The notes under the pieces were generated by a model. The model was not told the DNA's origin. It ran no database searches and saw only the letters and a program-made list of their open reading frames with translations. Below, piece after piece: positions 4,281 through 35,362 of a stretch of 64,000 nt of DNA. The position numbers and the translations under genes are program-made. The stretch's first letter is position 1. Each line of letters starts with the position of its first letter. Source of the DNA: an uncultured Candidatus Saccharibacteria bacterium (GTDB lineage Bacteria; Patescibacteriota; CALEFQ01; G965231055); the NCBI GenBank assembly GCA_965231055.1, contig OZ246411.1, positions 537,875 through 601,874 on the forward strand. The letters run 5' to 3'.

Positions 4281-4282
4281 TT

Positions 4283-5227: not shown

Positions 5228-5288
5228 TTTTTACGGATTTTTGCTGTGTGATTCGAGCCCTGTAACTTGTATAGCAATATAGCTTTTT

Positions 5289-5298
5289 GTGGTATAAT
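5289..5298 (+). promoter_or_regulatory. extended -10 element TGGTATAAT placed 7 nt before the mraY ATG (possible leaderless start)
   Basis: TGnTATAAT at 5290-5298. ATG at 5306. No SD. Confidence 0.4.
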
Positions 5299-5305
5299 AA
5301 AACAT

Positions 5306-6397
5306 ATGTCAATTGCATTCCAACAACCAGAATTAACCTATGATCTCATCAAGGTTTTTATACTAACCTTCATAGCTTTTATTGTGGCTTTTGGGTTTAC
5401 TCCAATAATGACACACTTTCTTTACAAATATAAATTTTGGAGGACCAAGGCCAGAGATACAGCGCCTGACGGAAGCAAGACTCCTATTTTCAATAAATTG
5501 CACAAGAAAAAAGAAGTGGGCACTCCTAGGTCCGGTGGTCTCTTGATTTGGATTACAGTATTGGTTCTTTCTGTTTTTTTCTGGATTTTGTCTGTTTTCG
5601 TGCCTGGATTTTGGCCAGAAAAACTAAATTTTATAAGCAGGGATCAGACTTGGATTCTGCTTTTTGCTTTGGTCACCACTGCTATCCTTGGATTTGTTGA
5701 CGATTTCATGGTTGTAAAAAACAAAGGCGCTAATAGGGGTGGAGGAATCTCATTCAAAGTTAGATTAGTTATCGTGGCTCTAATAGGGGCTGCCGGGGCG
5801 TATTGGTTTTATTATAAGTTGGGTTGGGATTCTATTCATATACCAGCTATAGGAGATTTTATAATAGGATGGTGGTACATACCTTTGTTTATTTTTACTG
5901 TTATAGCTTCTGTTTTTTCGGTCAACGAATCTGACGGTCTTGATGGTCTCTCTGCGGGTTTGGTTGCATTGTCTTTTTCCGCTTTTGCAGGAATCGCTAT
6001 TTTTAGAGGGCAGATAAATATAGCAGCATTTTGTGGCGTGATAGTCGGTGCTACGTTAGCCTATCTTTGGTTCAATATTCCTCCAGCGAGGTTTTATATG
6101 GGGGACACTGGTTCTCTCGCTCTTGGAGCTACTCTGGCTGTAGTTGCGTTTCTTACTAATTCTTTTGTGGTTCTACCAATTATCGGAATAGTATTTCTTA
6201 TCGAAGCGATTTCTGTTGTGTTACAGCTTGGATCAAAAAGATTTAGAGGCAAAAAAATATTTTTAGTTGCGCCTATTCATCATCACTTTGAAGCCAAGGG
6301 TTGGCCAGCTCACAAAGTTACTATGAGATTCTGGGTTATTGGAGCTATTGCGGCTGTTATTGGGTTGGTTATAGGTATAATAGGTAGTGGAAAATAA
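5306..6397 (+). CDS. mraY: phospho-N-acetylmuramoyl-pentapeptide transferase
   Basis: DDFMVVKNKG, NESDGLDGLSAGL, MGDTGSLALGA and APIHHHFE motifs with multiple TM segments. The ORF track starts at 5267, but that lies upstream of the TATAAT box, so the ATG at 5306 is preferred. Confidence 0.88.
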   Translation: MSIAFQQPELTYDLIKVFILTFIAFIVAFGFTPIMTHFLYKYKFWRTKARDTAPDGSKTPIFNKLHKKKEVGTPRSGGLLIWITVLVLSVFFWILSVFVPGFWPEKLNFISRDQTWILLFALVTTAILGFVDDFMVVKNKGANRGGGISFKVRLVIVALIGAAGAYWFYYKLGWDSIHIPAIGDFIIGWWYIPLFIFTVIASVFSVNESDGLDGLSAGLVALSFSAFAGIAIFRGQINIAAFCGVIVGATLAYLWFNIPPARFYMGDTGSLALGATLAVVAFLTNSFVVLPIIGIVFLIEAISVVLQLGSKRFRGKKIFLVAPIHHHFEAKGWPAHKVTMRFWVIGAIAAVIGLVIGIIGSGK

Positions 6398-7503
6398 TGT
6401 TTAAAATAAACAAAGAATTTCTAATCATACTAATTCTAATTGCTATAGCAGTAGCTTTTGGTTTATGGTTTTTTATTTTTAAGGATGGTGTTGCTTTTGG
6501 ACCCGAAAGTATTATGAATAAATCTTCAAAAGCCATGAGCGAGGTAAAATCTGTTAAATTTCAATATTCTCAGGAAGCCCTAGTGGCCGCAAATGCAGTT
6601 GAAGAGAGTGATAGAAAGCTTAATTGTAGCGGAATGATTAATTTTCCTTCCAATGCTATGATTGAGTGCAAGGACGTGGGTGCAGAGTCTAGTGATGAAA
6701 AGGTTATATACTATAACAATAAAATTTTTATACCTCTTTCTCTTTTGGGTGAATCAGATTCTGATGAGTGGGTGGAGGTCACACAGGAAGATGGATACAA
6801 GTCTCTCGAATTATTTTACGCTTCAAATATTCTAAGTTTTGTATCAAGCGGTGGAGGCGAAATTAGTTCATCTGAAACCTCAGAGTTTGAGGGAAATAAG
6901 GCACACAAGATTGTTTTTAAGATTCCTTTTTCAAATGCTAGGGGTGTGAATGATATTTTTGATACGCTTGTTTCAGACAAAGACGGTGGCGAAATTATAG
7001 GAGAAATCCTGATAGATGAATCGAACTTTCTTATTCATTCCATGAGACTTACTTCAAAATACGAAAATAAGGATATCATGGCGGTAAGCTATGTATTCTC
7101 AGATTTCGATTCTGACATAGAAATCACCAAGCCTGAAAATATTATTTCTGAACCATCTTTATCTGATCAAGCTAATACCAAGCAAGACGTGGGAAGTGTT
7201 GCGCTGAGAAATACGATAAGAAAAAGTGATGTGAGACAGCTTGCCTATATTTTGGAAAAATACTACGAATCTAAGGGCGAATATCCTGAGAGTAGGTCCT
7301 TGTCTAGAACCGATGACGTCAATGGAGATTTTTATAAATCTTTAGTTCCTGAGTTTGTAGGGAGTCTCCCCGTAGATCCACTGCCTGAAAAATATTATTA
7401 TAGTTATACTTGTTTGGGTGGAGAGCAATACACGATCAAGGGAGTTACAGAATCTGAAAATAGTGAAAAAGTAGATTATTATATTTATGAAGGCCCACAA
7501 TAA
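6397..7503 (+). CDS. hypothetical secreted/membrane-anchored protein with pilin-like (T2SS GspG-like) C-terminal region
   Basis: Single N-terminal TM segment. C-terminal RQLAYILEKYYESKGEYPES...LPVDPLPEKYYYSY resembles the pseudopilin globular domain. No prepilin cleavage motif. Confidence 0.4.
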   Translation: MFKINKEFLIILILIAIAVAFGLWFFIFKDGVAFGPESIMNKSSKAMSEVKSVKFQYSQEALVAANAVEESDRKLNCSGMINFPSNAMIECKDVGAESSDEKVIYYNNKIFIPLSLLGESDSDEWVEVTQEDGYKSLELFYASNILSFVSSGGGEISSSETSEFEGNKAHKIVFKIPFSNARGVNDIFDTLVSDKDGGEIIGEILIDESNFLIHSMRLTSKYENKDIMAVSYVFSDFDSDIEITKPENIISEPSLSDQANTKQDVGSVALRNTIRKSDVRQLAYILEKYYESKGEYPESRSLSRTDDVNGDFYKSLVPEFVGSLPVDPLPEKYYYSYTCLGGEQYTIKGVTESENSEKVDYYIYEGPQ

Positions 7504-9084: not shown

Positions 9085-10468
9085 AATATTTTCGGGGGTA
9101 GAAATACTCCCGATTTTAAATCATTTTATGAAGTCGCAAAGAAGCTATGAAAAATTCATATTTGAATCTTTTGATTTTAACGAGGAAACTCGTGAAATTT
9201 GTTTAAAATATAGTTTTGACGAAACAGAAAAATTTGAAGAAAAGTTTATTTTGCCAGAAGGAAAATTGAACTTGGCAAATAAGGAAGTTTTGAATAGCGC
9301 ATTGTTTGCACTTCATTTGGCTTGTGGTGTGAGCTATTTCAAGGCATATGTTCCCCAGAACATCGAAGTCAGAAGTGGTGAGTTGAGCGAAGAACAATCC
9401 CAGTTTTGGAATAAGCTTTATGGCATAGGACTGGGACAGTTTTATTATGAAAATAAAATTGATTTCAGAAAACTTGTAAATTTCCCGTGTATAAAAAAAG
9501 AATTTACTCCAAAAGAAATCAGTCTTCCAAATAGAAGTCTGCTTTCAATTGGGGGAGGAAAAGATTCTTTAGTGTCTCTTAAGTTATTGGAAGACAATGG
9601 CTTTGATTTTGATAATTTTACTTTGGGTGAAAATGAGATTTTCAAGAGCATAGACAAAATTTCAAAGTATAAAAGGTTGGTAGTAAAAAGAATTATAGAT
9701 AAAAATTTAGTAGCTCTTAGTAAGAGCGGTAAGGTATACAATGGACATGTCCCAGTAAGTTCAATTATTGCTTTTATTGAAGTGATAGTTTGTATTCTCT
9801 ACGGATACAAAAATATTATCGTTTCAAACGAATCAAGTTCAAACGAAGGCAATGTTTCGTATTTAGGGATGAATATAAATCATCAGTATTCAAAGAGCTT
9901 TGAGTTTGAAAAAGATTTTGACTTTTATATTAAGAATTATATTTCAAAAGAAATAAATTATTTTAGTCTACTAAGGCCCCTGACTGAGCTCGCGATAACC
10001 AAAAATTTTGCGAGTATAGCCACAGAATACTTTTCTGTATTTAGTAGCTGTAATAACAATTTCAAAATTCAAAGAGACGGAACCAAATCGTTGTGGTGTT
10101 GTACTTGCCCCAAATGTGCTTTTGTTTTTCTCATGCTGTCAGCGTTCTTGCCAAAGACAAAACTAATTGAAATTTTTGGTGAAAATCTTTATGAAAAACA
10201 ATCGCTTTTACCTCTTTTCGAAGAGCTTTGGGGTACTAAAGGATCCAAGCCGTTTGAGTGTGTGGGAACTAGTAAAGAGGCATTGGCAGCAACACTGCTG
10301 GCAAGTAGAAGCAAGGAATACTCTCATTCATTTGTGATGGATTATTTTGAAAGTAAAATTGTTTCCACGATTGAAGATGCGGATAGATTAATTGAAAAAG
10401 AGATCGGTTCTCGCTCAGAACACAATATTCCCGAAGAATTTTACGGAAAAATAAAAGAAATTCAATAA
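9047..10468 (+). CDS. PP-loop (SGGxDS-like) ATP pyrophosphatase-family protein, function unknown; stop abuts the murD start
   Basis: LLSIGGGKDSLVS parallels the LLAISGGVDSSVS PP-loop of MnmA in this same window. C-terminal Cys cluster WCCTCPKCAF. Alternative start ATG at 9128 would avoid a 38-nt overlap with the upstream gene. Stop at 10468 is followed immediately by the murD ATG at 10469. Confidence 0.55.
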   Translation: MEKRGWEYQYQNKIFSGVEILPILNHFMKSQRSYEKFIFESFDFNEETREICLKYSFDETEKFEEKFILPEGKLNLANKEVLNSALFALHLACGVSYFKAYVPQNIEVRSGELSEEQSQFWNKLYGIGLGQFYYENKIDFRKLVNFPCIKKEFTPKEISLPNRSLLSIGGGKDSLVSLKLLEDNGFDFDNFTLGENEIFKSIDKISKYKRLVVKRIIDKNLVALSKSGKVYNGHVPVSSIIAFIEVIVCILYGYKNIIVSNESSSNEGNVSYLGMNINHQYSKSFEFEKDFDFYIKNYISKEINYFSLLRPLTELAITKNFASIATEYFSVFSSCNNNFKIQRDGTKSLWCCTCPKCAFVFLMLSAFLPKTKLIEIFGENLYEKQSLLPLFEELWGTKGSKPFECVGTSKEALAATLLASRSKEYSHSFVMDYFESKIVSTIEDADRLIEKEIGSRSEHNIPEEFYGKIKEIQ

Positions 10469-11797
10469 ATGAAGTTTAAAGAATTAGAAAATAAAAAAGT
10501 ATTAATACTCGGATTTGGAAAAGAGGGTAAAGAGACTCTTGCATTTTTGCGTGAGCTTTTTCCCGATAAAGTTTTTTATATAGCTGATGAGAATGAATCA
10601 GTTAAGTTGCCTGATTCAAATACCAAGCTAATTCTTGGGAAAGATTACTTAAATTCTCTGGATGAATATGATCTCATAATCAAATCTCCCGGAATAAAAT
10701 TTTTCCCGCAGATTTTAGCTGTGAATCAGAAAGTTACTTCGGCTACTCGTTTGTTTTTTCAAAATCTTGACGAATCAAATCGTGTTATCGGTGTCACTGG
10801 GTCCAAAGGTAAAAGCACTACAACCTCTTTGATTTATAATGTTCTTAGAGACGCAGGAATCAATACCGAAATAGTCGGTAATATAGGTAAACCATCTCTG
10901 TCTTTTGTAAATCTTAAGGATACTGTTTTTGTGTATGAGCTCTCAAGCTATCAGCTAGAAGATTTTTCTGAAAAAGTGGATGTGGCAATTTTTACTGCTT
11001 TTTTTCCCGATCATTTGGATTACCATGGCGGAATTGATGAATATTTTAAAGCCAAGTCTCATATAGTGAATAACCAAGATAAAAGTTGCTTTTTTGTTTA
11101 CAATTCAAAATATGAAAAAATAGCAAATCTTATAACCAATGCAGAGCGTCTAATTTGTGGAGACAGAAACTATTTTTGGCACGACGGGGAAAGTATTTAT
11201 TTGAAAGACGAGGTTATCGCTCGAACCGATTCACTGAAATTAATTGGTAATCATAATTTTGATAATATTCTATTGGTCTTGGCTGTTGCGGAAGTTTTCG
11301 ACATTGATGTGAAAAATTCAATAAAGTCTATTGCGAAATTCAGGGGATTACCACATAGGCTAGAATATGTAGGAAATTTTAACGGTATAGATTTTTACGA
11401 TGATGCTATCTCAACTACTCCTGAATCCACGATAGCGGCGATCAAGGTATTTCAAGACCGCATAGGATCAATTATTTTGGGAGGAAGGGATAGAGGATAT
11501 GACTTTTCTGGATTAGTGAAAGAACTTGTTTTTTACAAAATAAACTCAATCGTGCTTTTTCCTGAGAGCGGAGATAAAATCGAGTTAGAAATAAAAAAAC
11601 AAAAAGAGTATAATCCTAAAATTTTCAAAACATCTTCAATGGAAGATGCGGTAAAATTTTGTTACAATAACACTGAAAGTGGTAAGATGTGTCTGCTTTC
11701 AACAGCATCGCCTAGCTACAGTATTTTTAAGAATTTTGAAGAAAAAGGCGATTTGTTTAAAAAGTTTATAAAAGAATTAGCAAATGAAAAACAATAG
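10469..11797 (+). CDS. murD: UDP-N-acetylmuramoylalanine--D-glutamate ligase
   Basis: Mur ligase P-loop VIGVTGSKGKSTTTSL. Synteny murD-ftsW-murG-murC. Confidence 0.85.
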   Translation: MKFKELENKKVLILGFGKEGKETLAFLRELFPDKVFYIADENESVKLPDSNTKLILGKDYLNSLDEYDLIIKSPGIKFFPQILAVNQKVTSATRLFFQNLDESNRVIGVTGSKGKSTTTSLIYNVLRDAGINTEIVGNIGKPSLSFVNLKDTVFVYELSSYQLEDFSEKVDVAIFTAFFPDHLDYHGGIDEYFKAKSHIVNNQDKSCFFVYNSKYEKIANLITNAERLICGDRNYFWHDGESIYLKDEVIARTDSLKLIGNHNFDNILLVLAVAEVFDIDVKNSIKSIAKFRGLPHRLEYVGNFNGIDFYDDAISTTPESTIAAIKVFQDRIGSIILGGRDRGYDFSGLVKELVFYKINSIVLFPESGDKIELEIKKQKEYNPKIFKTSSMEDAVKFCYNNTESGKMCLLSTASPSYSIFKNFEEKGDLFKKFIKELANEKQ

Positions 11798-12974
11798 AGG
11801 AGAATTGGTAGATATGAGAAGGTCTAGTAAGTCAGACCTTGTTTTAACTTTTTCAGTGATTGCTTTGGTTGTGGTTGGACTGATCTCTATAGCGTCTGCG
11901 AGTTCAGTAAGGGGCTTTGAAAATTTTAATGACCCGTATTATTATTTCAAGCACCAGCTTTTTTATGGAGTAATAGTGGGAATTATCGCGATGTTTGTTG
12001 TTTCAAATATCAATTATCTTACTTTGAAAAAGCTTGGTAAGTGGTGTCTTTTTGGTTCTGTATTTTTATTGCTTTTGGTTTTTATTCCAGGAATAGGAAC
12101 TTCTTATGGAACAGGATCTCATAGCTGGATAAATATTGGTTTTTCTATTCAGCCTACCGAAATAGTAAAGCTTCTATTTATAATCTATCTTGCAGCTTGG
12201 CTAGAAAAAATGGGCAAAGACTTAGCTGATTTCAAAAAAGGCCTTTTGTCATTTGTATTTGCTTTGGGGATAGTCGCGGTGCTCATAATGTTGCAACCAG
12301 ATTTGGGTACTCTTATTGTTATAGCTTGTACTTCAATAGCAATGTTTTTCATGGGAGGCGCTCCTTCTAAATATATTGCTCTTATTCTTGGAGGAGCTGC
12401 TGCGTTTTTTGCTTTCTTGGTAAAAATCGCACCATATAGACTTGCTAGATTCACTGTGTTTCTTCACCCAGAGCTTGATCCTCAGGGAATAGGTTATCAG
12501 GTAAACCAAGCGTTACTAGCCGTGGGGTCTGGTGGAATATTTGGTTTGGGTCTAGGACATAGCAGGCAAAAATTCAACTATCTTCCAGAAGCCTCGGGAG
12601 ACTCTATATTTGCTATAATGTCAGAGGAGCTCGGGTTACTTAGAATAATTATTGTATTGGCGCTTTTTGCTATTTTCGCATGGAGAGGTTTTCGAATAGC
12701 TTCTAATACCAATGACAGATTTGGCAAGTTTTTAGCAATAGGTATAACTAGCTGGATAACCATCCAAGCTTTTATGAATATTGGCGCTATATTATCTCTT
12801 ATTCCGCTTACCGGAATCCCACTTCCTTTTATAAGTTATGGAGGAAGTTCAATAATTTTTTCACTCATAGGTGTCGGGATTCTTATGAATATTTCCAAGC
12901 AGAATAATGATCGATCGCGAAAGAATGTTACTAATTTCGGAGTAAGAAAAAAGCGTAGTAGGGTTATGGTCTAA
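11784..12974 (+). CDS. ftsW: SEDS-family peptidoglycan glycosyltransferase FtsW
   Basis: Polytopic membrane protein with FtsW/RodA-like conserved loops (PDLGT, SYGGSS). Sits between murD and murG. Confidence 0.85.
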   Translation: MKNNRGELVDMRRSSKSDLVLTFSVIALVVVGLISIASASSVRGFENFNDPYYYFKHQLFYGVIVGIIAMFVVSNINYLTLKKLGKWCLFGSVFLLLLVFIPGIGTSYGTGSHSWINIGFSIQPTEIVKLLFIIYLAAWLEKMGKDLADFKKGLLSFVFALGIVAVLIMLQPDLGTLIVIACTSIAMFFMGGAPSKYIALILGGAAAFFAFLVKIAPYRLARFTVFLHPELDPQGIGYQVNQALLAVGSGGIFGLGLGHSRQKFNYLPEASGDSIFAIMSEELGLLRIIIVLALFAIFAWRGFRIASNTNDRFGKFLAIGITSWITIQAFMNIGAILSLIPLTGIPLPFISYGGSSIIFSLIGVGILMNISKQNNDRSRKNVTNFGVRKKRSRVMV

Positions 12975-22717: not shown

Positions 22718-23326
22718 ATGAAAATCACTAAATTTACAAAGAAGTTGCTTATAGCTACGCTGATCGGTGTTGTTGCCGGGTTCTTTATTACCATACTAAC
22801 CCCAATTAAATACAAGGTTGTTTCCGAATTTGAATTTTCAGATTTAGAACCGGAAGATGCTGTTGTATTAGCCAAGAAGACTATTTATGATGTGGGTTTT
22901 ATAAATTCTGTACAGGATGCATTTCCAACATCATATGACTTTTTTTCGCAGGATGATGATGGATTGAAGCGTGATTGGAAAAATGTAGTTAAAATAAGCT
23001 ACAATCTAAAAACCAAGCACATAGAAACGGTGGTATTGCATGACAATCTTGAAAACACTATCAAGCTTTCACGTGCCATGACTTCGCAATTTCAATCAAA
23101 GGTATCTGATGTTAAGATTATTAGAAACTCAGAAGCGGATGATAGGATAGCTTCTCCCGATGTTCGTAAGATTATTCCAATATCCGTTATTACTGCAATT
23201 GTTATGTTTTTGGCAGTTGAATGGTTGGTGAATAATCAAAAAAAACAAGAGCGACGTAGTGGTCAATCAGCAAAAAATGATGATTATAACGCCAGAACTA
23301 AAAACTGGCTTAACGATAAACATTAA
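22718..23326 (+). CDS. hypothetical bitopic membrane protein (TM - extracytoplasmic domain - TM)
   Basis: N-terminal and C-terminal hydrophobic helices. Topology resembles a polysaccharide co-polymerase. No motif recognised. Confidence 0.4.
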   Translation: MKITKFTKKLLIATLIGVVAGFFITILTPIKYKVVSEFEFSDLEPEDAVVLAKKTIYDVGFINSVQDAFPTSYDFFSQDDDGLKRDWKNVVKISYNLKTKHIETVVLHDNLENTIKLSRAMTSQFQSKVSDVKIIRNSEADDRIASPDVRKIIPISVITAIVMFLAVEWLVNNQKKQERRSGQSAKNDDYNARTKNWLNDKH

Positions 23327-23349
23327 ATAATTTAATTAATATTAATACA

Positions 23350-25686
23350 ATGAAAACCAATTTCAAGAAAAAAGTGAAATTTGGAGTAAGCGTTGTTGTC
23401 ACTGTTTCCTTAGTATTGGGTTCAATACTAAGCTTTGCCAATGCCGCAGATGCTCTCAAATTTTCAAACGCCAACAAAGCAACTCAAATGCATAAGGTTT
23501 ACGAAAACCTTAATGATAAATTTGAGCTTTCTGATAATGGCGGAAGAATTTATCAGGACAAGAAATATGATCTAGAATTCAGAACCAATTTTGCCTCTTT
23601 GCCTTATCAGAGAAGCAATGGTTCAGTTAACTCTCTAGAGATTACAATCAAAAACACAGGAGAAAAAGCTCAAGAAGTAAGAGCTGAGCACTTGGCTTTT
23701 CAAATCAATCCTATTGTAAGAACCAATGGGGAATGTACATACCTAAACAACGGTCAGCCAAATGTTGCTAGCGAAGAGCTTGCTCAAATAATTGATAATC
23801 AAGAAGTTGCTTTTGATACCATAGTTCCTCCACTTTGCTATTGGGATCCTTCAATGCAAAGCGCTTGGGGTAAAGAAATAAAGATGGTTCAAAACACTTA
23901 CGAGAAATATGTGCAACCTGCACAGAGTGTTTTGGTTGCAGCTCAAAGTGAGAAAACAATCAAATTCGAATATAGACTTACGGATGCTGGTTATTTTCAA
24001 GATGACGTAGCATTCTCAGTAAGTGGTAATCCTATAGGAATGGTTGGAACTTATTATAGAGTTCCTGGTTTAGGACAACCAAGTGTACAAATAGATAAAG
24101 TCGCTTCAGTTGCAGATCCTAGGACTTCTGATTCGGTTTGGAGCAAAGAAATCCAAATCAAAAGAGGTTCTGATATGTGGTTTAAAGTAACCGCGACAAA
24201 TACAGGAAGCGCTGATGCTACTGAAGTTTGGTTGGGAGATATATTCGGAGAAGCTGATCAAGCTAACAAGATATTGACTCCAGGATATGTGAGACATATA
24301 GATGATAAAATTAATTTGGTAAGTGATAATTATACTACAGGTAATATAGAAGTATTTGGTTCAAATCTAAATGCCTTGAGAATAGGCAGTATATGGGCAA
24401 GCGACAACGTTTTGAATCCAAATGTGGATGCCGAAATAGTTGATATCGACAAAGATGGAATAAAAGATTTTGTTTCTGTAAAAGCTACTCACCTAAAACC
24501 AGGTGAATCAAAAACCTTCTATGTGAAAAATACCGCGAAAGCAGATCTTTCTCTTGGTGAAAAAATCATGAAGAATCAGGGTGCTTTCTTCTCATGGTAT
24601 TTGAATCCTAAGTTTAAAACTTCTGAGGCTGTGGTTAAAATAGGAAAAACTGCTCCTCCAATTGTTCAACCAGGACCACATGAGATTACGCCTAGTCCAA
24701 AAGCTACTATTACCAATCTTGTTTCTGATACAAATGATGACTACGCAAAGAGCATAGTATCAAAGGTTGGTGAAGAGATAGCATATAGGATCACAGTTAC
24801 AAATACTGGAAACACCAAGCAAAATGGAACTCTTGTTAATGATTATGATGAGAAATACATCGAAGTCATTGATCCTGATACAAAAGATATAGCCAAATCG
24901 TTTGTGGATTCTAAAAAGCTTACTACTTATGAATTGGGTGAGCTCAAATCAAACGAATCAGTTGTTATAGATGTAAAAGCTAAAGTAAAAAGCTCTCTTC
25001 CTACAACTGAGGTAGTTATAGATGATGCTGCTGAATATACCGAGGATCAGATTGATCCTATCTCTGCAAATGCATCTGTGACCGTTAAGGCTAGACCAGA
25101 TACACAAGGAGCATATCTTATAGTTGATAAGTCGCTAAACGATGTTAATGGCGCAGCCATTGAACCAGGTGATGAACTAAGATATGTAGTTAGTGTTACC
25201 AACAAAGGAGATGCCGATGCAAAAAATGTCTTGGTTGAAGACAATATGCCAAGATATACAAATGGCTTTTCAGTAATAAAACTTCCTAGTGGAGCAGAAG
25301 ATAAGTCTTCAAAAACAGGTGGAGCCAACGATACAGGTATGCTTAAAGTTATTATAGAAAAAGTAAAAGTTGGTGAAACTCAAGAAATAGAATATAGAGT
25401 CTTTGTTGACAGCAAGGTTCCTGATGGAGCTGAGATTGTGAACAAAGCAACCGCAGCATCTGATGATAAAAAAGGAACTGGAACTGTTGCTGGAACGATA
25501 GGAAAAACCAATGTTGTGAAAACAGGAGAGGTTTTGGGAGCAAGTAAGACTCCTGCTAATGTTCCAACTGGACCAGTAGAAGATGCAGTTAAATGGATAC
25601 TATTCGCTATTGTTATGGGTGTTGCTGGAGTATTCTCATTTACAAAATTTACTCTTCCATTTTCTCTAGGAATTGTAGCTAAGTAA
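23350..25686 (+). CDS. large cell-surface protein with DUF11-like repeat domains and a C-terminal sortase sorting signal
   Basis: Signal peptide (ANAADA). Recurrent xVTxTNTGxxxAxxV repeats (KVTATNTGSADATEV, ITVTNTGNTKQNG, VSVTNKGDADAKNV). C-terminus has NVPTGP followed by a hydrophobic segment and a short Lys-containing tail. Immediately followed by a sortase gene. Confidence 0.6.
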   Translation: MKTNFKKKVKFGVSVVVTVSLVLGSILSFANAADALKFSNANKATQMHKVYENLNDKFELSDNGGRIYQDKKYDLEFRTNFASLPYQRSNGSVNSLEITIKNTGEKAQEVRAEHLAFQINPIVRTNGECTYLNNGQPNVASEELAQIIDNQEVAFDTIVPPLCYWDPSMQSAWGKEIKMVQNTYEKYVQPAQSVLVAAQSEKTIKFEYRLTDAGYFQDDVAFSVSGNPIGMVGTYYRVPGLGQPSVQIDKVASVADPRTSDSVWSKEIQIKRGSDMWFKVTATNTGSADATEVWLGDIFGEADQANKILTPGYVRHIDDKINLVSDNYTTGNIEVFGSNLNALRIGSIWASDNVLNPNVDAEIVDIDKDGIKDFVSVKATHLKPGESKTFYVKNTAKADLSLGEKIMKNQGAFFSWYLNPKFKTSEAVVKIGKTAPPIVQPGPHEITPSPKATITNLVSDTNDDYAKSIVSKVGEEIAYRITVTNTGNTKQNGTLVNDYDEKYIEVIDPDTKDIAKSFVDSKKLTTYELGELKSNESVVIDVKAKVKSSLPTTEVVIDDAAEYTEDQIDPISANASVTVKARPDTQGAYLIVDKSLNDVNGAAIEPGDELRYVVSVTNKGDADAKNVLVEDNMPRYTNGFSVIKLPSGAEDKSSKTGGANDTGMLKVIIEKVKVGETQEIEYRVFVDSKVPDGAEIVNKATAASDDKKGTGTVAGTIGKTNVVKTGEVLGASKTPANVPTGPVEDAVKWILFAIVMGVAGVFSFTKFTLPFSLGIVAK

Positions 25687-25691
25687 AAATA

Positions 25692-26378
25692 ATGAATAGC
25701 AAGCTAATAAAAAAAATATCATGGCTTGCGGGTATGGCTATTGTGGCCGTAGGTATAGTTGTGTTTGCGCTTACGGCCCAACCATATTTTAATGATATTA
25801 TTCAGAAACTAACCGGAAAGGTTGAGTTTAATACTGATGCAGTATCTCTTACCAATGAAAGTGTAAATGAAGAGTCTCGAGTTTCAGGGGAAACTAAAGA
25901 AGTTGAAGAAGCGAGGATTGTAACAGCCGAAGAGGCGATGAACAGCGTTTCTATTCCCACCATAGGGCTAAAAAATATTCCAGTTATTTATCCCAAGGTT
26001 AACGATTATGAAACTATAGAGAGCGCTTTGGCTGATGGCGTTGTTCATCTTTCAAATACCTCTCTGCCAGATGCTAATACTGGAGCTACTTATATCATAG
26101 GGCATAGTTCAAATTTAAGTTGGGCAAAGGGGGATTATAATTATGTATTTAAAGATTTATCAAATTTAGAGGCGGGTAATACTATTAAGGTCAATTACGG
26201 AAGAGAAAGATACGATTATGTTGTGATAGAAAAACGCTTCCTTAATTTTGATGAAGCTATAAATATGAAATTTGATTCAAGTAAAAAAGTTTTGGTACTG
26301 ATGACATGTTGGCCAGCTAATTCTTCAAGGGCCAGGATAGCTATTATTGCAGAAACCAAAGCCAAGCAATCTTTTTAG
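25692..26378 (+). CDS. sortase (cysteine transpeptidase)
   Basis: N-terminal TM anchor. Conserved His (YIIGHSS), catalytic Cys (LVLMTCWP) and Arg (SRARIAI). Confidence 0.75.
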   Translation: MNSKLIKKISWLAGMAIVAVGIVVFALTAQPYFNDIIQKLTGKVEFNTDAVSLTNESVNEESRVSGETKEVEEARIVTAEEAMNSVSIPTIGLKNIPVIYPKVNDYETIESALADGVVHLSNTSLPDANTGATYIIGHSSNLSWAKGDYNYVFKDLSNLEAGNTIKVNYGRERYDYVVIEKRFLNFDEAINMKFDSSKKVLVLMTCWPANSSRARIAIIAETKAKQSF

Positions 26379-27625: not shown

Positions 27626-28837
27626 GTGTATATAGATTTTATTACAATACTTATTCCGTTTAAAGCCGCTTTTGATATTCTTGCGGAATGGTGGTGGGTA
27701 GTTATACCTGCCTATTTGGTTTTTCTATATTCTGAGGTGTGGGTTGATTATTTTCAGAAACGCACAACTGAGAGCGTAAATTGGAAAAATTTGCTTATAA
27801 GTGTGCCCAAGGAGTTTACTAGGGGTCCAGAGGTTATGGAACAGTTCTTTGCTTCAATGTGGTCTCTGTACGCTCCGCCAAATCTCATCGATACTGTATT
27901 CAAAGGAGAGAAACAAAATTTCTTAAGCTTTGAGTTGGTTGGTATTGATGGAAATGTGAGATTCATAGTTCACACGCCAGATATTTTTCAAGATCATGTG
28001 GAGGCACAGATTTATGCCCAATATCCAGAGGCAGAAATTCAAGAAATAGATGATTATACGGAATTAATACCTGATGATTTTCTAGATAAGGGATATGATC
28101 TTTGGGGAACTGAATTTGAATTTACAAACAAGGAAAGCGATGAGTTAAAAAACATGTTTCCAATAAGGACGTATCATGTTTTTGAGCATCAATTTTCAGG
28201 AGTATCAACGGATCCTATGGCTGCGATAACTGAGTTTCTAAGCCGACTAAAAAAGGGGGAGCAAGTTTGGTTTCAAATCTTGACTAGGCCTGCCAGTCCA
28301 GGTTGGGGTAAAATTGGACAAAAATTTGTGCAAAGTGTGGTAGATAAATACAAGTGGGATAAGGATAGTGGCGGAGGAGGAATGATGCCTCCAACTGACC
28401 AAGATATAATAAAAGCAGTTTCTTCGAAGATTGAAAGACAGGGTTTTGAGTGTAAATTTAGATTTGTTTATGTGGGAAAAAAAGAAGTTTTTCAAAAAAG
28501 CTACGGGGTTACTGGGGCGATAGGTCCTATTCAGCAATTTTGCTCCAATGTTATGAACGGAGTTAAGCCAAATAAATCAGTGACAACTAGTATTGATTAC
28601 TTTTTTCCAGATATGCGAGTTAAGTTTAGAAAAAAAGCTCTGTTTAGGGCAATGAAAAAAAGAGATTTTGAATTTGGTAGTGCATTTCTTGTATTTAATC
28701 CAGAAGAACTTGCTACTTTGTGGCACTTTCCAGAACCACAAGTTAAGGCAGAGCGTGTTGAAAAAATTAGAGCTAAGAAGTCAGGTGCTCCAGCGGGTCT
28801 TCCTGTTGAGCCCAAGCCCACTGATATAAAAGTATAA
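27626..28837 (+). CDS. membrane-anchored protein homologous to the N-terminal domain of the downstream 727-aa ATPase
   Basis: N-terminal TM helix (WWWVVIPAYLVFLY). Soluble domain aligns block-by-block with aa 1-300 of the 30531 product (PIRTYHVFEH/SIRTYKSSES, VWFQILTRP/VLFQTIVEP, ELATLWHFPE/ELASFVHIPD). Confidence 0.5.
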   Translation: MYIDFITILIPFKAAFDILAEWWWVVIPAYLVFLYSEVWVDYFQKRTTESVNWKNLLISVPKEFTRGPEVMEQFFASMWSLYAPPNLIDTVFKGEKQNFLSFELVGIDGNVRFIVHTPDIFQDHVEAQIYAQYPEAEIQEIDDYTELIPDDFLDKGYDLWGTEFEFTNKESDELKNMFPIRTYHVFEHQFSGVSTDPMAAITEFLSRLKKGEQVWFQILTRPASPGWGKIGQKFVQSVVDKYKWDKDSGGGGMMPPTDQDIIKAVSSKIERQGFECKFRFVYVGKKEVFQKSYGVTGAIGPIQQFCSNVMNGVKPNKSVTTSIDYFFPDMRVKFRKKALFRAMKKRDFEFGSAFLVFNPEELATLWHFPEPQVKAERVEKIRAKKSGAPAGLPVEPKPTDIKV

Positions 28838-28839
28838 AT

Positions 28840-30507
28840 ATGGTTTTAGATAAAAACAAACAAATTTCTGAAGATGATGTGACATACTTTGCTATGACAA
28901 ATTACAGAAGCGAGCAAAGAAAGTTTGGTATAAAACTGAACGACCGAAGAAAGCACATGTACATCATAGGAAAGACTGGTATGGGAAAAACAACCTTGCT
29001 TGAAAACATGGCTGTTTCGGATATAAAAAAAGGTCACGGACTTGCCTTTGTGGATCCGCACGGAGAAACTGCTGAAAAACTTTTGAATTATATTCCAAGT
29101 AGTAGGGTAAATGATGTGGTTTATTTTAATCCCGCTGATACAGATTATCCCATCGCGTTCAATATCATGGAATCGGTGGAAGAAAAGTATAGAAATGTGG
29201 TTGCGGATGGACTTGTGAACGTTTTCAAAAAGATATGGGCAGATTCTTGGGGACCTAGACTTGAATACATACTTCGTAATGCTATTTTGGCTTTGCTTGA
29301 AAATCCTGGGAATACATTGCTCGGAGTAACTAGAATGCTAGTTGATCCTGCATATAGAAAAAAGATAGTAAAAAATATCAAAGATCCGGTGGTAAAATCC
29401 TTCTGGACTCAGGAATATCCAGGATATAGCGAAAAGCTCAAAGCCGAAGCGATCTCTCCTATTCAAAACAAAGTAGGACAGTTTTTGGCCAACTCAATGA
29501 TACGAAATATTTTGGGTCAACCAAAAAGTACAGTCAATATGGAAGATGTTATGAATGAAAGAAAAATCTTAATACTCAATCTCTCAAAGGGAAGGATAGG
29601 GGAAGATGCATCGCATTTGTTGGGAGCTATGTTTATTACAAAGATTCAGGTGGCTGCTATGTCTAGAGCAAGAATAAAGCCCGAAGAAAGAAAAGACTTT
29701 TTTCTATACGTTGACGAGTTTCAGAATTTTGCTACAGAGAGTTTTGCTGGAATCTTATCTGAAGCTAGGAAATATCGTTTAAATCTAATTATAGCTCATC
29801 AGTATATAGGTCAGCTTTCAACTACCGGAAGTACAGTGGTTAGAGATGCTGTTTTTGGAAACGTGGGAACTATAATAAATTTCAGAGTTGGAGCACAAGA
29901 TGCAGAGTTTTTGGTCAAAGAATTTGAACCAATATTTACAGAAAACGATCTTGTTAATCTTCCGTTTGCAGGTATATATCTCAAGCTCATGATAGATGGT
30001 GTTGCTAGCGATGCTTTTTCTGCAAACACATTGCCACCCCTTTTTGAACCAGAAGGGTTAGAGGAAACTGTGATTAAAGTTTCTAGGGAGCGACACTCCA
30101 AAAAAAGAGAATTGGTAGAGGAAAGAATTATGAAATGGAGTGATGTGGGAGACTCTTCGTCAGAAAAGTTTACTGAAAAGCCAAAAAACAATACATATAA
30201 GCCAAATAATTTCAGAAGTCAGGATACAAAACCCAAGCCATCAATTAATTTTGCTGATAAAAGACCGGTGTCAATAGAGAAGAAAGACATCCCAACTGCA
30301 AAGGGTGTTTCTCTTGCTTCTGCTATTGGCCAGCACACAGTTGATTTTAGGGGAAAGAAACAAACCAATGATTTTGTGGCGCCACCAAAAGTGAGACCCC
30401 AAGAGAGAAAAGATTTTCCTAAAAAAAGACCAATTAGAAATACAGTTAATACATCCAATGAAAATACTCCTGAAATTGAACTATTGAAGCAAAAAGGTAT
30501 TTTGTAA
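28840..30507 (+). CDS. VirD4/TraD/VirB4-family (T4SS coupling-protein-like) P-loop ATPase, soluble form
   Basis: Walker A IIGKTGMGKTT, then FVDPHGE (compare TrwB IVDPNGD). Walker B LYVDEFQNF. ARKYRLNLIIAHQYIGQL sensor block (compare TrwB GRKAGLRVVAGLQSTSQL). Low-complexity C-terminal tail. Confidence 0.65.
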   Translation: MVLDKNKQISEDDVTYFAMTNYRSEQRKFGIKLNDRRKHMYIIGKTGMGKTTLLENMAVSDIKKGHGLAFVDPHGETAEKLLNYIPSSRVNDVVYFNPADTDYPIAFNIMESVEEKYRNVVADGLVNVFKKIWADSWGPRLEYILRNAILALLENPGNTLLGVTRMLVDPAYRKKIVKNIKDPVVKSFWTQEYPGYSEKLKAEAISPIQNKVGQFLANSMIRNILGQPKSTVNMEDVMNERKILILNLSKGRIGEDASHLLGAMFITKIQVAAMSRARIKPEERKDFFLYVDEFQNFATESFAGILSEARKYRLNLIIAHQYIGQLSTTGSTVVRDAVFGNVGTIINFRVGAQDAEFLVKEFEPIFTENDLVNLPFAGIYLKLMIDGVASDAFSANTLPPLFEPEGLEETVIKVSRERHSKKRELVEERIMKWSDVGDSSSEKFTEKPKNNTYKPNNFRSQDTKPKPSINFADKRPVSIEKKDIPTAKGVSLASAIGQHTVDFRGKKQTNDFVAPPKVRPQERKDFPKKRPIRNTVNTSNENTPEIELLKQKGIL

Positions 30508-30530
30508 TAATTGAATTTTAATTTTAGCTA

Positions 30531-32714
30531 TTGGTGATCTCAAAATATAAATTATTAAGAGCGCGATTTGCCATATCTTCCAGTTTTATGGATGATAGAT
30601 TTGGCAATGTGCTTGTTAGGATATCCAAATTTGAAAACCTATTTTTGCAACTTCACAGCATGCTATTGGGATTGCAAAGTGATAGGCGAGCTAGCATAGA
30701 ATGGGTTTCTATAAGAGGCAAGTTGAGCCTTTATTTTTATATCCCGGTAGCATTAGAAAGCTCATTCAAATCACTGGTTTTTTCTTTGTTTCCTGATGTA
30801 AATATTATAGAAGAAAAAAATTACGAAGGACTTGAATCTGTCGGCGGAAACTTTGCCGTATCTGAAATAACTCTTGAAGCCCAGGAGCTCTACTCGATAA
30901 GAACATATAAAAGTAGCGAGTCCGTGGATCAGATGAGCTCTTTTTTTAATTTGATCGCATCTACTCCCATGAGCGAAGCTGTGCTTTTTCAGACCATAGT
31001 GGAACCCATAGACGAAAAAGTAGAATCAGGAGAAAAAGGTATTATTTATTACCAAACAGAAAAAAAGGAAGCAATAGAGGAAAAGCAAAAGTTTTATGTG
31101 AGTTCGCGAATGGTTTATTTTTCTGAGCAAAAAGAGCTAAATCCCATGCTTTCACAATTTGAACCTGCTTTTAGTGAATTTGCTTCAGATAGAAATAAGA
31201 TAGTTATACTTAGTCCTTCTTATGAGAAGAAAAACCTTGTGGCTTATTTTTCAAGAGCCAGGGCGAAAACAAGATGTATTTTTAATCGTGAAGAGCTGGC
31301 TTCTTTTGTGCATATCCCAGATGCCTCATCAAAAACTCCAGGATTTGACTGGATTTTGTCTAGAAAATCAGAGCCACCCGTTAATCTTCCAACTTCATCA
31401 AATACAAAAATAGATGAGCTTTGTCTTTTTGGAGCTACGAATTTCAGAGACTCTAGGGTTCCATTTGGAATAAAAAGAGAGGACAGAAGAAGACACCTAT
31501 ATACAGTTGGAAAAAGTGGTACTGGTAAAAGCAAGATGCTTGAAAATCTCATAATTTCAGATATAAATTCCGGCAAAGGTGTTTGCGTGATTGATCCTCA
31601 CGGAGATCTTATCCAAAATTCTCTCAAACGCATTCCAAAAGAAAGAATTGATGATGTAGTGTATTTCAATCCATCTGATATGGATTTTCCCATAGCATTT
31701 AATCCTCTAGAAAATATTTCCAAGGAATATAAACAGCAAGTAGCGCAGGGACTCATTGAGGTTTTCAAAAAATCTTTTGGGGCAGATTGGACTCCCAAAA
31801 TAGAACATGTTTTCAGATTTACCGTTTTGGCATTATTGGATTATAAAAAAGCAACTATTGCAGATATTATGAAAGTTCTCACAGACAGATCTTTTAGACA
31901 GGATGTGATTTCAAAAATTGAGGATTCAGTAGTAAAAAACTTCTGGGCAAACGAATTTTCTAGTTGGTCAGAAAAGTTTGATAATGAAGCGATTATTCCA
32001 CTACTTAATAAGCTAGGACAATTTTTATCCATAGAATTGGTAAGAAATATAGTAGGACAACCAAAGAATCTCATAAATCTTAATGATATCTTAAACAATC
32101 AAAAAATTCTTTTCATAGAATTATCAAAAGGTAAATTGGGAGAAGAAAATATATCATTGCTCGGGTCAATGATACTAACCAAAATTCAGCAAGCTATAAT
32201 GGCGCGAGCTTATATGAAAGAAGAAGATCGCAAGGATTTTTATTTGTATGTGGATGAGTTTCAATATTTTGCTACCTCTACATTTTCTGATATTTTGGCT
32301 GAATCTCGTAAATACAAACTAAGTCTCACGCTGTCTCACCAGTATCTAGGACAGCTTTCACCTGAAATTAAACAAACAGTTTTTGGCAATGTTGGTTCGT
32401 TTATTGTTTTTAGAGTTGGAGCAGAAGATGCCTCTTTTCTAGAAAAAGAACTGCAACCAACATTTAGTGCGAATGATATTATCAATCTTGGAGTAAGAGA
32501 AGTGTATGTGAAAATGTCTATTGCGGGAGAAACCACTAGGCCATTTTCAGCTCGTACTATGGATGTGCCATCTGAGCCAGCAGATAATTCAGTGGATGAA
32601 ATTATAAAGAGATCCAGGGCGAAATATGCAAATTCACTAGATAAAGTAAAAAAAGAATACGACGCATCTATCGCTTTTACTCAAGACGATGAATTTGAAA
32701 AACCAGTTGTTTGA
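30531..32714 (+). CDS. fusion paralog: N-terminal domain related to the 27626 product plus a VirD4/VirB4-family ATPase domain
   Basis: aa 300-727 carry Walker A VGKSGTGKSK, VIDPHGD, Walker B LYVDEFQYF and the block SRKYKLSLTLSHQYLGQL. aa 1-300 align to the upstream 403-aa protein. Confidence 0.65.
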   Translation: MVISKYKLLRARFAISSSFMDDRFGNVLVRISKFENLFLQLHSMLLGLQSDRRASIEWVSIRGKLSLYFYIPVALESSFKSLVFSLFPDVNIIEEKNYEGLESVGGNFAVSEITLEAQELYSIRTYKSSESVDQMSSFFNLIASTPMSEAVLFQTIVEPIDEKVESGEKGIIYYQTEKKEAIEEKQKFYVSSRMVYFSEQKELNPMLSQFEPAFSEFASDRNKIVILSPSYEKKNLVAYFSRARAKTRCIFNREELASFVHIPDASSKTPGFDWILSRKSEPPVNLPTSSNTKIDELCLFGATNFRDSRVPFGIKREDRRRHLYTVGKSGTGKSKMLENLIISDINSGKGVCVIDPHGDLIQNSLKRIPKERIDDVVYFNPSDMDFPIAFNPLENISKEYKQQVAQGLIEVFKKSFGADWTPKIEHVFRFTVLALLDYKKATIADIMKVLTDRSFRQDVISKIEDSVVKNFWANEFSSWSEKFDNEAIIPLLNKLGQFLSIELVRNIVGQPKNLINLNDILNNQKILFIELSKGKLGEENISLLGSMILTKIQQAIMARAYMKEEDRKDFYLYVDEFQYFATSTFSDILAESRKYKLSLTLSHQYLGQLSPEIKQTVFGNVGSFIVFRVGAEDASFLEKELQPTFSANDIINLGVREVYVKMSIAGETTRPFSARTMDVPSEPADNSVDEIIKRSRAKYANSLDKVKKEYDASIAFTQDDEFEKPVV

Positions 32715-34064: not shown

Positions 34065-34316
34065 ATGGGATCACTTTATGATTTTTGCGATGGTTCGAGC
34101 GACAAAGAGTATATTAAGCAGGCAATGGTTAATGTGAAGCAGATTCAATCTCAAATTGATTCAGCAAGCGCTTCTAGTGACGAAGCTCAGAAAGCGCAGG
34201 TTTCTTCTCTTCAGGAGCAATTAAAATCAGCTAAGGAGAATTGGAAGGAATCATCCAAAAAATTCGCTGAAAAAATAGAAGATTTTTTATCTAGTGATAA
34301 TTGGGACGGTAACTAA
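34065..34316 (+). CDS. small hypothetical protein (83 aa), helical and acidic
   Basis: ORF immediately upstream of the coiled-coil protein gene, overlapping it (TAATG). No motifs recognised. Confidence 0.3.
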   Translation: MGSLYDFCDGSSDKEYIKQAMVNVKQIQSQIDSASASSDEAQKAQVSSLQEQLKSAKENWKESSKKFAEKIEDFLSSDNWDGN

Positions 34317-35362
34317 TGTCTGAAATACCCATAGAGATAACTAAAAAACTACAGAGAGCTTTTAGGGCGCTCGAAGCTTTTGCGTCTGCTTCAGAGCATC
34401 AGGTTTCTGAGACAGTGGGCAATAAGCCCGTGACTCGTAAGCGCCTAGAAGAGCTAGAGCAAAAAGAAAAAAACTTTCAAGAGGAGATATCTAGAATTGA
34501 GGCCGATATTTATGCTGCCAAAACACGACTCAGGGATTTGAAAGGTGGAGAGAGGGATTATGATATAGAGAAAAGACAGCACGAAACCATAACGCAGAAT
34601 TTAGAAACTGAAATTCACGAGCTTGAATCTGAAAAGAAAAAACTAGAAGAAAAAATAAGACAAATAGAAGAAAAGATAGAACTGAACAAGAGCAAGATAA
34701 GCATGGAAGAAATAAGAATTCAAGAGTTTCAGTCTCAAACTGGATTGAAAGCAAAAGAATTGTCTTCTATCGAAGATCAAATAAAGGCGCTAGAAGAAGG
34801 AATAAAGAAAAACAAATCTGAAATTGAGCAAAATTCATTGGAAAAAGCTGAAGTAGCCACTAAGCTTGCCGAAATTGAGCGCAAAGCAAGACTCAATGGA
34901 GATAATAGTGGTATGAGTTTGGATAGAGTTAGAGTAATGCTTGAAGAATCTAAGCGACCGTTAGAGGTTTTTATAAATAAAGAAAAAACTGAAGAGAGAA
35001 AATATCACAATCTGATGGCGGATGCGTCTGCCGGTGGAAGATCGTTGGCGAGTCTTAGAGCAGAAGAAATGGATGCGAATATAGATATTGGAAATGCTTC
35101 TCGTAAAGCTGGAAATATGTCACTTTCTTCTCAGGAGAGGGATGAAGCCAAGAGAGAACTCGCTGAGTTAAACATTGAACTCAACGAAATCAGAAGAAAG
35201 AAGATAGATGCTGAAAGAGTAGAGCGATCTGCCTCGGGTAGATATGATCCGAAAGAGCTCAAGAAAGCTGAAGAGTTGAGGAAACAGATAGAATTGGGTT
35301 TATTAAAAATGAGGGCATTGAATGATAAACCCGAATTTAGGGGAATTGACTTGATTGAATAG
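34316..35362 (+). CDS. long coiled-coil protein, function unknown
   Basis: About 300 aa of heptad-like E/K/L-rich sequence (ELESEKKKLEEKIRQIEEKIELNK...). Overlaps the alaS start by 8 nt. Confidence 0.45.
   Translation: MSEIPIEITKKLQRAFRALEAFASASEHQVSETVGNKPVTRKRLEELEQKEKNFQEEISRIEADIYAAKTRLRDLKGGERDYDIEKRQHETITQNLETEIHELESEKKKLEEKIRQIEEKIELNKSKISMEEIRIQEFQSQTGLKAKELSSIEDQIKALEEGIKKNKSEIEQNSLEKAEVATKLAEIERKARLNGDNSGMSLDRVRVMLEESKRPLEVFINKEKTEERKYHNLMADASAGGRSLASLRAEEMDANIDIGNASRKAGNMSLSSQERDEAKRELAELNIELNEIRRKKIDAERVERSASGRYDPKELKKAEELRKQIELGLLKMRALNDKPEFRGIDLIE

Follow-up and report, generated by a model that had tools for sequence, protein, structure and literature searches.

Split and fused versions of a two-domain, coupling-protein-like ATPase in a Candidatus Saccharibacteria genome

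The window described here is a 64 kb stretch of DNA (64,000 nucleotides) from an uncultured Candidatus Saccharibacteria bacterium, positions 537,875 to 601,874 of contig OZ246411.1. Near its middle lie three adjacent genes on the same strand. The first encodes a protein of 403 amino acids (aa) with a membrane helix, the second an ATPase of 555 aa, and the third a protein of 727 aa that combines counterparts of both. The first two are called the split pair here, the third the fused gene. On balance, the three genes seem to encode a single kind of two-domain ATPase, of the VirB4/VirD4 type within the FtsK-HerA superfamily, in two paralogous forms of ancient origin. All close relatives of these proteins belong to the Patescibacteria, or Candidate Phyla Radiation (CPR).

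A first-pass annotation, made from the letters of the DNA, had claimed that one two-domain unit is present in two forms at this locus, one split and with a transmembrane (TM) anchor, the other fused and without it. This is true homology. BLASTP aligns aa 101-394 of the 403-aa protein with aa 55-288 of the 727-aa protein (E=2e-7, 22% identity), and the four matching blocks quoted in that annotation all fall within this alignment. A hidden Markov model (HMM) made from 41 split-type homologues of the 403-aa protein matches aa 52-186 and 236-293 of the 727-aa protein with 63 bits (E=1.2e-21), and leaves the 555-aa ATPase unmatched. When the two families are compared as profiles with hhalign, aa 51-399 of the 403-aa protein align with aa 4-293 of the 727-aa protein, over 277 columns, with a probability of 100% and E=3e-40.

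The second half is closer still. The 555-aa ATPase and aa 295-700 of the 727-aa protein share 47% identity across 410 aa (E=5e-144); the first-pass annotation had already paired the ATPase with the C-terminal part of the fused protein. Homology of both halves, beyond chance, is confirmed. With aa 1-300 of the 727-aa protein as the query, phmmer run exhaustively returns 229 relatives, in which split-length proteins (about 400-500 aa) and fused-length ones (700-1100 aa) are mixed. A word-indexed search with the same query gave zero matches, the query itself included; this is a limit of the prefilter and does not mean that relatives are absent.

The membrane helix is restricted to the 403-aa protein, again in line with the original claim. 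Its mean Kyte-Doolittle hydropathy over 19 residues exceeds 1.4 within aa 1-37, and its AlphaFold2 model has a single long helix at aa 5-50. The 555-aa protein reaches at most 1.38 and the 727-aa protein 1.25, both in predicted strands or helices of globular domains, so that by hydropathy neither motor chain has an N-terminal TM domain above threshold.

What did not survive is the idea of a gene fission or fusion at this locus. When 124 motor domains were placed in a neighbour-joining tree, the split-type motors (63, including the 555-aa one) came out as a single clade without the 727-aa protein, with support from 160 of 200 bootstraps. The 727-aa protein instead joins a group of fused ones. 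Its ATPase is some 64% identical to a widespread fused family, and only 47% to its neighbour. Members of this 727-type family measure 725-760 aa, are 43-59% identical to the 727-aa protein over their full length, and occur in Kerfeld-, Uhr-, Magasanik-, Falkow-, Peregrini-, Gracili- and Abawacabacteria, among others. Given this separate, widespread family, and the split-type clade that excludes the 727-aa protein, the duplication appears to be ancient. The paralogy is best read as old and Patescibacteria-wide, and it is the local event that falls away. Only the adjacency is specific to a lineage.

That adjacency is rare. A third paralog in tandem was seen at one of 53 loci (L012), and with three found separately, the known cases are the window, L088, L089 and L012. 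The family member at L088 is 59% identical, and L089 is from a Kerfeldbacteria genome. Elsewhere, as at L005 and L090, 727-type genes stand alone at unrelated loci. None of the 727-type members that were examined has an N-terminal TM helix; they start at their first beta-strand, with consensus LLIRFP. Longer fused proteins of about 800-1100 aa that do have a TM helix also exist.

Both motors resemble type IV coupling proteins (T4CPs). The Pfam family TrwB_AAD_bind matches with 38.5 bits (555 aa) and 44.6 bits (727 aa), where the cut-off is 20.5; T4SS-DNA_transf does so with 26.5 and 27.6 bits, with a cut-off of 20.1. DUF87 matches the 555-aa motor with 32.5 bits. The best NCBIfam and PDB sequence matches of both are coupling proteins. 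The Walker A and Walker B motifs are intact in both and agree with invariant columns of the families. None of the window proteins covered by the Pfam scan matched CagE_TrbE_VirB (PF03135) or AAA_10 (PF12846), and an HMM of the ATPase run over the 64 kb found the 555-aa and 727-aa genes and no other FtsK-HerA ATPase. A reading as a defence system was dropped: PADLOC gave generic P-loop similarities (mad8, HerA) and no defence signature.

The N-terminal domain is a known family with a number for a name, although the first-pass annotation recognised neither this nor that both architectures were on record. The 403-aa protein is a member of PF26449 (DUF8128), by way of the precomputed match of an identical protein (P0001). 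The local Pfam scan assigned it to no family, presumably since the copy used lacks the PF26449 model. The record of the 727-aa protein (P0271) has no PF26449 match, despite the matches by family HMM and hhalign; its N-terminal domain is, judged by these profiles, a homologous but divergent outlier of DUF8128. About two thirds of its listed relatives do have a PF26449 match, together with DUF87 or TrwB_AAD_bind. No paper in the literature searched names DUF8128.

The AlphaFold2 model of the 403-aa protein has a mean predicted local distance difference test score (pLDDT) of 88 and a predicted template modelling score (pTM) of 0.83. When it is submitted to Foldseek, the top 12 matches are all chains of TrwK, the VirB4 of plasmid R388 (E=6e-5 to 2e-3). 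Since the query lacks a P-loop domain and none of the numerous RecA-like PDB chains comes close in score, the match should be to the VirB4-specific N-terminal domain. The fold search tools do not output the TrwK residues that were aligned, and the domain was assigned by this elimination. The DUF8128 profile finds nothing meaningful among PDB sequences; the relation to VirB4 is visible by fold comparison only. DUF8128 is thus predicted to have the fold of the VirB4 N-terminal domain. In the predicted structure of the 727-aa protein the N-terminal domain has its strands and helices in the same order as the 403-aa protein, with a pLDDT mostly above 85, and lacks both the TM helix and the helical hairpin equivalent to aa 227-270 of the 403-aa protein.

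The coordinates are collected in Table 1. The start of the 555-aa gene lies 2 nucleotides (nt) past the stop of the DUF8128 gene. The public gene call of the fused gene has 708 aa and begins at ATG 30588 (Met20). The first beta-strand of the 727-type family (LLRARF here, aa 6-12) lies upstream of this ATG, and a start at TTG 30531 or GTG 30534 is therefore more likely.

Table 1. Features of the split pair, the fused gene and their upstream neighbour, in window coordinates.
Feature	Position	Strand	Remarks
Sigma-r4/HARE-HTH protein, 375 aa	26461..27588	+	Sigma70_r4 N-terminal, HARE-HTH C-terminal; upstream neighbour of the split pair
Split N-domain subunit, 403 aa	27626-28837	+	Open reading frame (ORF), GTG start; TM helix and DUF8128
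N-terminal hydrophobic/TM helix of 403-aa protein	~aa 1-45, nt 27626-27760	+	
DUF8128 domain of 403-aa protein	aa 51-399, nt 27776-28822	+	Predicted fold of the VirB4 N-terminal domain
Junction motif APAGLPVE	C-terminal end of 403-aa protein	+	
Split motor subunit, 555 aa	28840-30507	+	T4CP-like P-loop ATPase, FtsK-HerA superfamily; no TM helix
Walker motifs of 555-aa motor	Walker A G44-KTGMGKT51; Walker B D292-E293		Read from sequence
Basic low-complexity tail of 555-aa motor	C-terminal ~120 aa		
Fused paralog, 727 aa	30531-32714	+	TTG start; divergent DUF8128 and ATPase, no TM helix
Divergent DUF8128 of 727-aa protein	aa 4-293, nt 30540-31409	+	
Linker EPPVNLP of 727-aa protein	Between DUF8128 and motor		
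T4CP-like ATPase of 727-aa protein	aa ~295-700, nt 31413-32630	+	
Walker motifs of 727-aa motor	Walker A G327-KSGTGKS334; Walker B D575-E576		Read from sequence
C-terminal peptide FEKPVV of 727-aa protein	aa 722-727, nt 32694-32711	+	Conserved

The surroundings of the split pair were counted in 80 loci from species-level genomes, fetched with the DUF8128 alignment; the denominators differ per feature. The ATPase gene directly adjoins the DUF8128 gene at 61 of 77 loci, with a median gap of 9 nt. A gene with sigma-70 region 4 and HARE-HTH domains lies directly upstream of DUF8128 at 54 of 73 (median gap 75 nt), and SecD/SecF is found within 5 kb upstream at 38 of 56. This arrangement recurs from species to species, which makes the split pair part of a conserved chromosomal block and not of a mobile element. 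In the window the neighbours are SecA, SecDF, a sortase, the sigma-like protein, MnmA, AlaRS and an FtsA-like protein. GC content and GC skew are even across the window.

The sigma-like protein of 375 aa has Pfam matches to Sigma70_r4 (aa 40-93, E=7e-14) and HARE-HTH (aa 250-312, E=5e-17). It also exceeds the cut-off of TIGR04567, RNAP_delt_lowGC (48.3 bits versus 42). The best NCBIfam match of its sigma part is to region 4 of the anti-phage sigma factor MzaA and of RpoD. From these matches it looks like an unusual, Patescibacteria-specific factor associated with RNA polymerase (RNAP).

Other genes of the locus are listed here for completeness. Between SecF and the sigma-like gene (22718-26378) there are three: an unannotated ORF of 202 aa, the sortase, and a surface protein of 778 aa with DUF11/CLIPPER repeats, a signal peptide-like N-terminus and a hydrophobic C-terminal anchor. 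A homologue of the 202-aa ORF and the sortase recur at L088, a locus that is elsewhere only about 59% identical. Between mnmA and alaS (34065-35362) lie ORFs of 83 and 348 aa, charged and coiled-coil-like, with no family match except a sub-threshold one to ERM_helical.

The split gene is not always accompanied by a motor. At about 16 of 77 loci (for example L004 at 9678-12179, L028, L033, L034, L054 and L057) no motor adjoins DUF8128, and several of these loci are labelled Magasanikbacteria. L004 and L033 have a fused gene of about 850 aa on the opposite strand, 6-8 kb from the motor-less DUF8128. At L004 a diversity-generating-retroelement pair, bAvd and RVT_1, follows the motor-less gene. 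Some metagenome-assembled genomes (MAGs) with a Patescibacteria-type module are titled 'uncultured Gammaproteobacteria' or 'Bathyarchaeia archaeon' (L020, L023, L031, L032, L082 and others). These titles are probably binning or naming errors, and not a sign of wider distribution.

How might this work? In the split lineage, the N-domain subunit would sit in the membrane by its single N-terminal helix. The motor would be a separate protein, probably translationally coupled, that docks on the N-domain subunit non-covalently. In the fused lineage the membrane helix and the helical hairpin would have been lost, while the N-domain evolves fast and the C-terminal peptide stays invariant. Both lineages would assemble into hexamers and work as translocation motors on the cytoplasmic side of the membrane. 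The 403-aa protein would tether and organise a hexamer of the 555-aa protein there, like the VirB4 N-domain does within one chain, and like TrsD may do for TrsE. The soluble 727-aa protein may form its own ring or join the tethered one. It could be recruited to the split motor, or to another partner, through contacts of its N-domain or of its C-terminal peptide, in analogy to the inner and outer VirB4 subunits in the 'hexamer of dimers' of R388, and to the archaeal CedB and CedD.

CedB and CedD are co-occurring paralogs that each have a TM segment, a part that resembles the VirB4 N-terminal domain, and an ATPase (bioRxiv 10.1101/2024.09.27.615246). DNA import requires the two of them, and it has been proposed that together they act in the manner of a VirB4 hexamer of dimers (bioRxiv 10.1101/2024.09.27.615246). 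With this precedent, and with the VirB4-type fold of the N-domain, a hetero-oligomeric ring or distinct membrane-bound and soluble states, as suggested in the first-pass annotation, are plausible.

What the motors do is harder to say. Tentatively, and with somewhat less assurance than we have for the paralogy, their most likely role is to energise or couple the transfer of DNA or protein through a type IV secretion system (T4SS) that Patescibacteria carry at other loci. A Ced-like role in DNA import is about half as probable, and what is left goes to roles of another kind. In a survey of 2,918 Patescibacteria genomes there were 5,713 T4CP homologues, or about two per genome, of which 148 were near virB4 (PMC12102498). 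The T4SS locus of Southlakia comes without a recognisable coupling protein (PMC10633639).

Several observations weigh against the reading as T4SS-type motors in two ancient lineages. The TM-scores to TrwK are modest, at 0.39-0.42 when normalised to the query. The curated NCBIfam models for T4CPs (TraD, CD1115), VirB4 and CedD all score far below their cut-offs: TIGR00929 (VirB4) reaches 13.2 bits of the 643 required (E=0.019), and NF053655 (CedD) reaches 34.8 and 26.1 bits of 600, over the P-loop region only. The motor tree is neighbour-joining and unrooted, and its key split has moderate support (80%). The Pfam scan, which covered part of the ORFs of the 64 kb window, found no T4SS, relaxase or competence gene; VirB3, VirB6 and VirB8 channel genes were likewise not among the neighbours scanned. 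Finally, the t4cp homologue of Southlakia is non-essential although the T4SS of this species, the only one tested, is essential, and exaptation has been suggested (PMC12102498). This argues against a unique role in the T4SS, yet it is what one would expect if paralogs overlap.

A bolder version is that DUF8128-T4CP proteins are a surviving intermediate between VirB4 and VirD4, a T4CP-like motor that kept the VirB4 N-domain. The anchored split and soluble fused versions would then form one VirB4-like 'hexamer of dimers', a phylum-wide translocation motor independent of T4SS, for example for acquiring host DNA or nucleotides. This is speculative and we rate it as rather improbable. If it were true, the tolerance of single t4cp insertions would be accounted for by paralogs that are redundant or cooperate.

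Among the alternatives, the one that survives best, unlikely as it still is, holds that the ATPases are unrelated to T4SS and serve as a Ced-like DNA import motor or another DNA translocation motor, with the sigma-r4/HARE-HTH protein as part of the system. CedB and CedD offer a precedent, in that a paralogous pair is required for DNA import, and there is the weak CedD match at E=7e-9, but its 34.8 bits are far under the cut-off. The gene upstream at 54 of 73 loci does encode two DNA- or RNAP-binding domains, but it may be a plain conserved housekeeping gene, an RNAP delta-like factor. That T4CP homologues are almost never near virB4, with exaptation proposed, fits as well (PMC12102498). Patescibacteria are naturally transformable, but transformation in Southlakia depends on ComEC, and no such ATPase is implicated in it (PMC12857230). 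Neither is there a pilus or channel gene nearby.

Another possibility is that the fused paralog is a decaying, redundant copy, with a degenerating N-domain and no role distinct from that of the split pair. The N-domain of the 727-type family does evolve much faster than its motor: mean pairwise identities are 31% and 63%. Of 30 residues that are invariant in the split family, the 727-aa N-domain keeps about 18, a count made by mapping residues by hand on the hhalign alignment. The split signature YAQYPEAEI has become FSLFPDVNI. The TM helix and hairpin are gone, and the Pfam model misses the protein. At L012, a MAG labelled Saccharibacteria, the position of the fused paralog (5563-6999) is taken by a 478-aa motor that begins MPREKIRKIKYAPPPPELP, in which the whole N-domain is missing and only the junction linker PPPPELP was kept. 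A 651-aa member of the soluble fused clade (P0122, L007 611-2566) has YINE for YVDE, replacing the Walker B Asp by Asn, in a motor that is otherwise divergent; from its sequence it may be a catalytically impaired variant.

Decay is improbable all the same. The ORF of the 727-aa protein is intact, with both Walker motifs, and its N-domain is predicted to fold with confidence. The family has about 90 invariant positions across 38 members, N-domain residues included, and has been kept in many bacterial classes with strongly reduced genomes. The C-terminus follows the pattern F-[ED]-x-P-[LIVM]-[VIL], of which F and P are invariant in 38 of 38 sequences. The split lineage has other endings: a second PPxNLP motif is the usual end of split DUF8128 proteins, and many split motors, though not the 555-aa protein of the window, end in something like KPGQVIKF, as do some long fused proteins. 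These conserved terminal peptides look like docking motifs. The tail of TraD from the F plasmid, which binds TraM, is comparable.

Beyond Patescibacteria, relatives are found on plasmids. A tblastn search of plasmids with the 403-aa protein gave fused proteins on Bacillus plasmids and on one Halorubrum replicon. The Bacillus subtilis plasmid NZ_CP154917.1 (27.5 kb; L091) has at 3558-6215 a gene for a fused protein of 885 aa without TM helix, in which DUF8128 covers aa 52-310 (E=2e-18) and is followed by the motor over aa 319-749 (E=5e-63). Directly downstream lie a Replic_Relax relaxase and a conjugation cluster with its own VirB4 (AAA_10). Because these adjoin, the fused DUF8128-ATPase appears to fill the position of the coupling protein in Firmicutes. 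Such Bacillus plasmids are about 25-68 kb in size, are typed as 'non-mobilizable', and carry genes annotated 'conjugal transfer protein'. They may be conjugative, with a coupling protein type that has gone unrecognised. On pHLAC01 of Halorubrum lacusprofundi (L092, 8881-12711), with insertion sequence (IS) elements around it, is a gene for a 1276-aa protein with a DUF8128-like N-domain (E=1e-14) and a T4CP-like motor from about aa 658, which shows that the architecture occurs outside Bacteria too.

Could the genes in the window then be the remnant or cargo of an integrated conjugative element, that is, classical conjugative coupling proteins outside host physiology? The T4CP-type Pfam matches would fit, as would the relaxase next to the Bacillus homologue and the fused architecture included in PHROG 5156. 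It is nonetheless very improbable. The order SecDF, sigma-like gene, DUF8128, ATPase recurs in dozens of species-level genomes; the flanks here are core genes (SecA, SecDF, MnmA, AlaRS) in DNA of even composition. Relaxase, integrase and VirB4 were not found among the ORFs scanned at the locus, and the 403-aa protein had no match in the phage collection. Across Patescibacteria there are only 109 relaxases (PMC12102498).

A recent local event, either a tandem duplication of the split pair followed by fusion or fission of a duplicated fused gene, would account for the adjacency, shared strand, shared domain order and homology of both halves, but it is hardly tenable with neighbours that are only 47% (ATPase) and 22% (N-domain) identical, a fused protein that is nearer to a separate Patescibacteria-wide family and falls outside the split-type clade, members of that family at loci without a split pair, and different C-terminal signature peptides per lineage.

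Part of this is on record already, namely the DUF8128 family in both its split and its fused form, and the large number of orphan T4CP homologues. In the literature searched, no mention turned up of the VirB4 N-domain fold of DUF8128, of a division of the orphan T4CPs into two lineages of ancient origin that differ in their terminal motifs, or of the conserved block of SecDF, sigma-like gene, DUF8128 and ATPase.

Patescibacteria, which rely on host cells, account for much of the diversity of bacteria. The hitherto unexplained two or so orphan T4CP homologues per genome would, under the paralogy favoured here, be an ancient split, membrane-anchored lineage and an ancient fused, soluble one. The split lineage sits in a conserved block of core genes. 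DUF8128 would gain a fold and a likely role, with a VirB4-type N-domain on both lineages. This leads to hypotheses on how macromolecule transfer is energised, involving binding partners, mixed rings and redundancy between paralogs. It also adds a data point on the evolutionary relation between VirB4 and the coupling proteins.

Comparison with known systems starts with PF26449 itself, which has the split and fused architectures in Patescibacteria on record and comes with no assigned fold or function. T4CPs (VirD4, TrwB, TraD, and CD1115 of monoderm elements) match both motors at the profile level, in the nucleotide-binding domain and the all-alpha domain. Canonical T4CPs however lack a VirB4-type N-domain and have their motor joined directly to a two-helix N-terminal membrane domain. 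In the genes described here, DUF8128 either precedes the motor (fused) or is its partner on another chain (split), and the TM helix sits on the separate 403-aa protein. The context differs as well, with core genes in place of a relaxase or T4SS nearby in the window.

With VirB4, such as TrwK of R388, DUF8128 shares the predicted fold of the N-terminal domain. The motor by contrast is nearer to T4CPs by sequence, and scores far below the cut-off of the VirB4 profile. The membrane helix is on the N-domain subunit itself, and not on a separate VirB3. Patescibacteria moreover own a separate, true VirB4.

The likeness to CedB and CedD lies in co-occurring paralogous ATPases, with a VirB4 N-domain-like part and a HerA/VirB4-like motor, and with TM helices in about half of them. 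The Ced system is archaeal (crenarchaeal) and induced by DNA damage, and no CedA-like channel gene was found here. CedB corresponds to one part of the VirB4 N-domain and CedD to another; both lineages described here possess a whole DUF8128.

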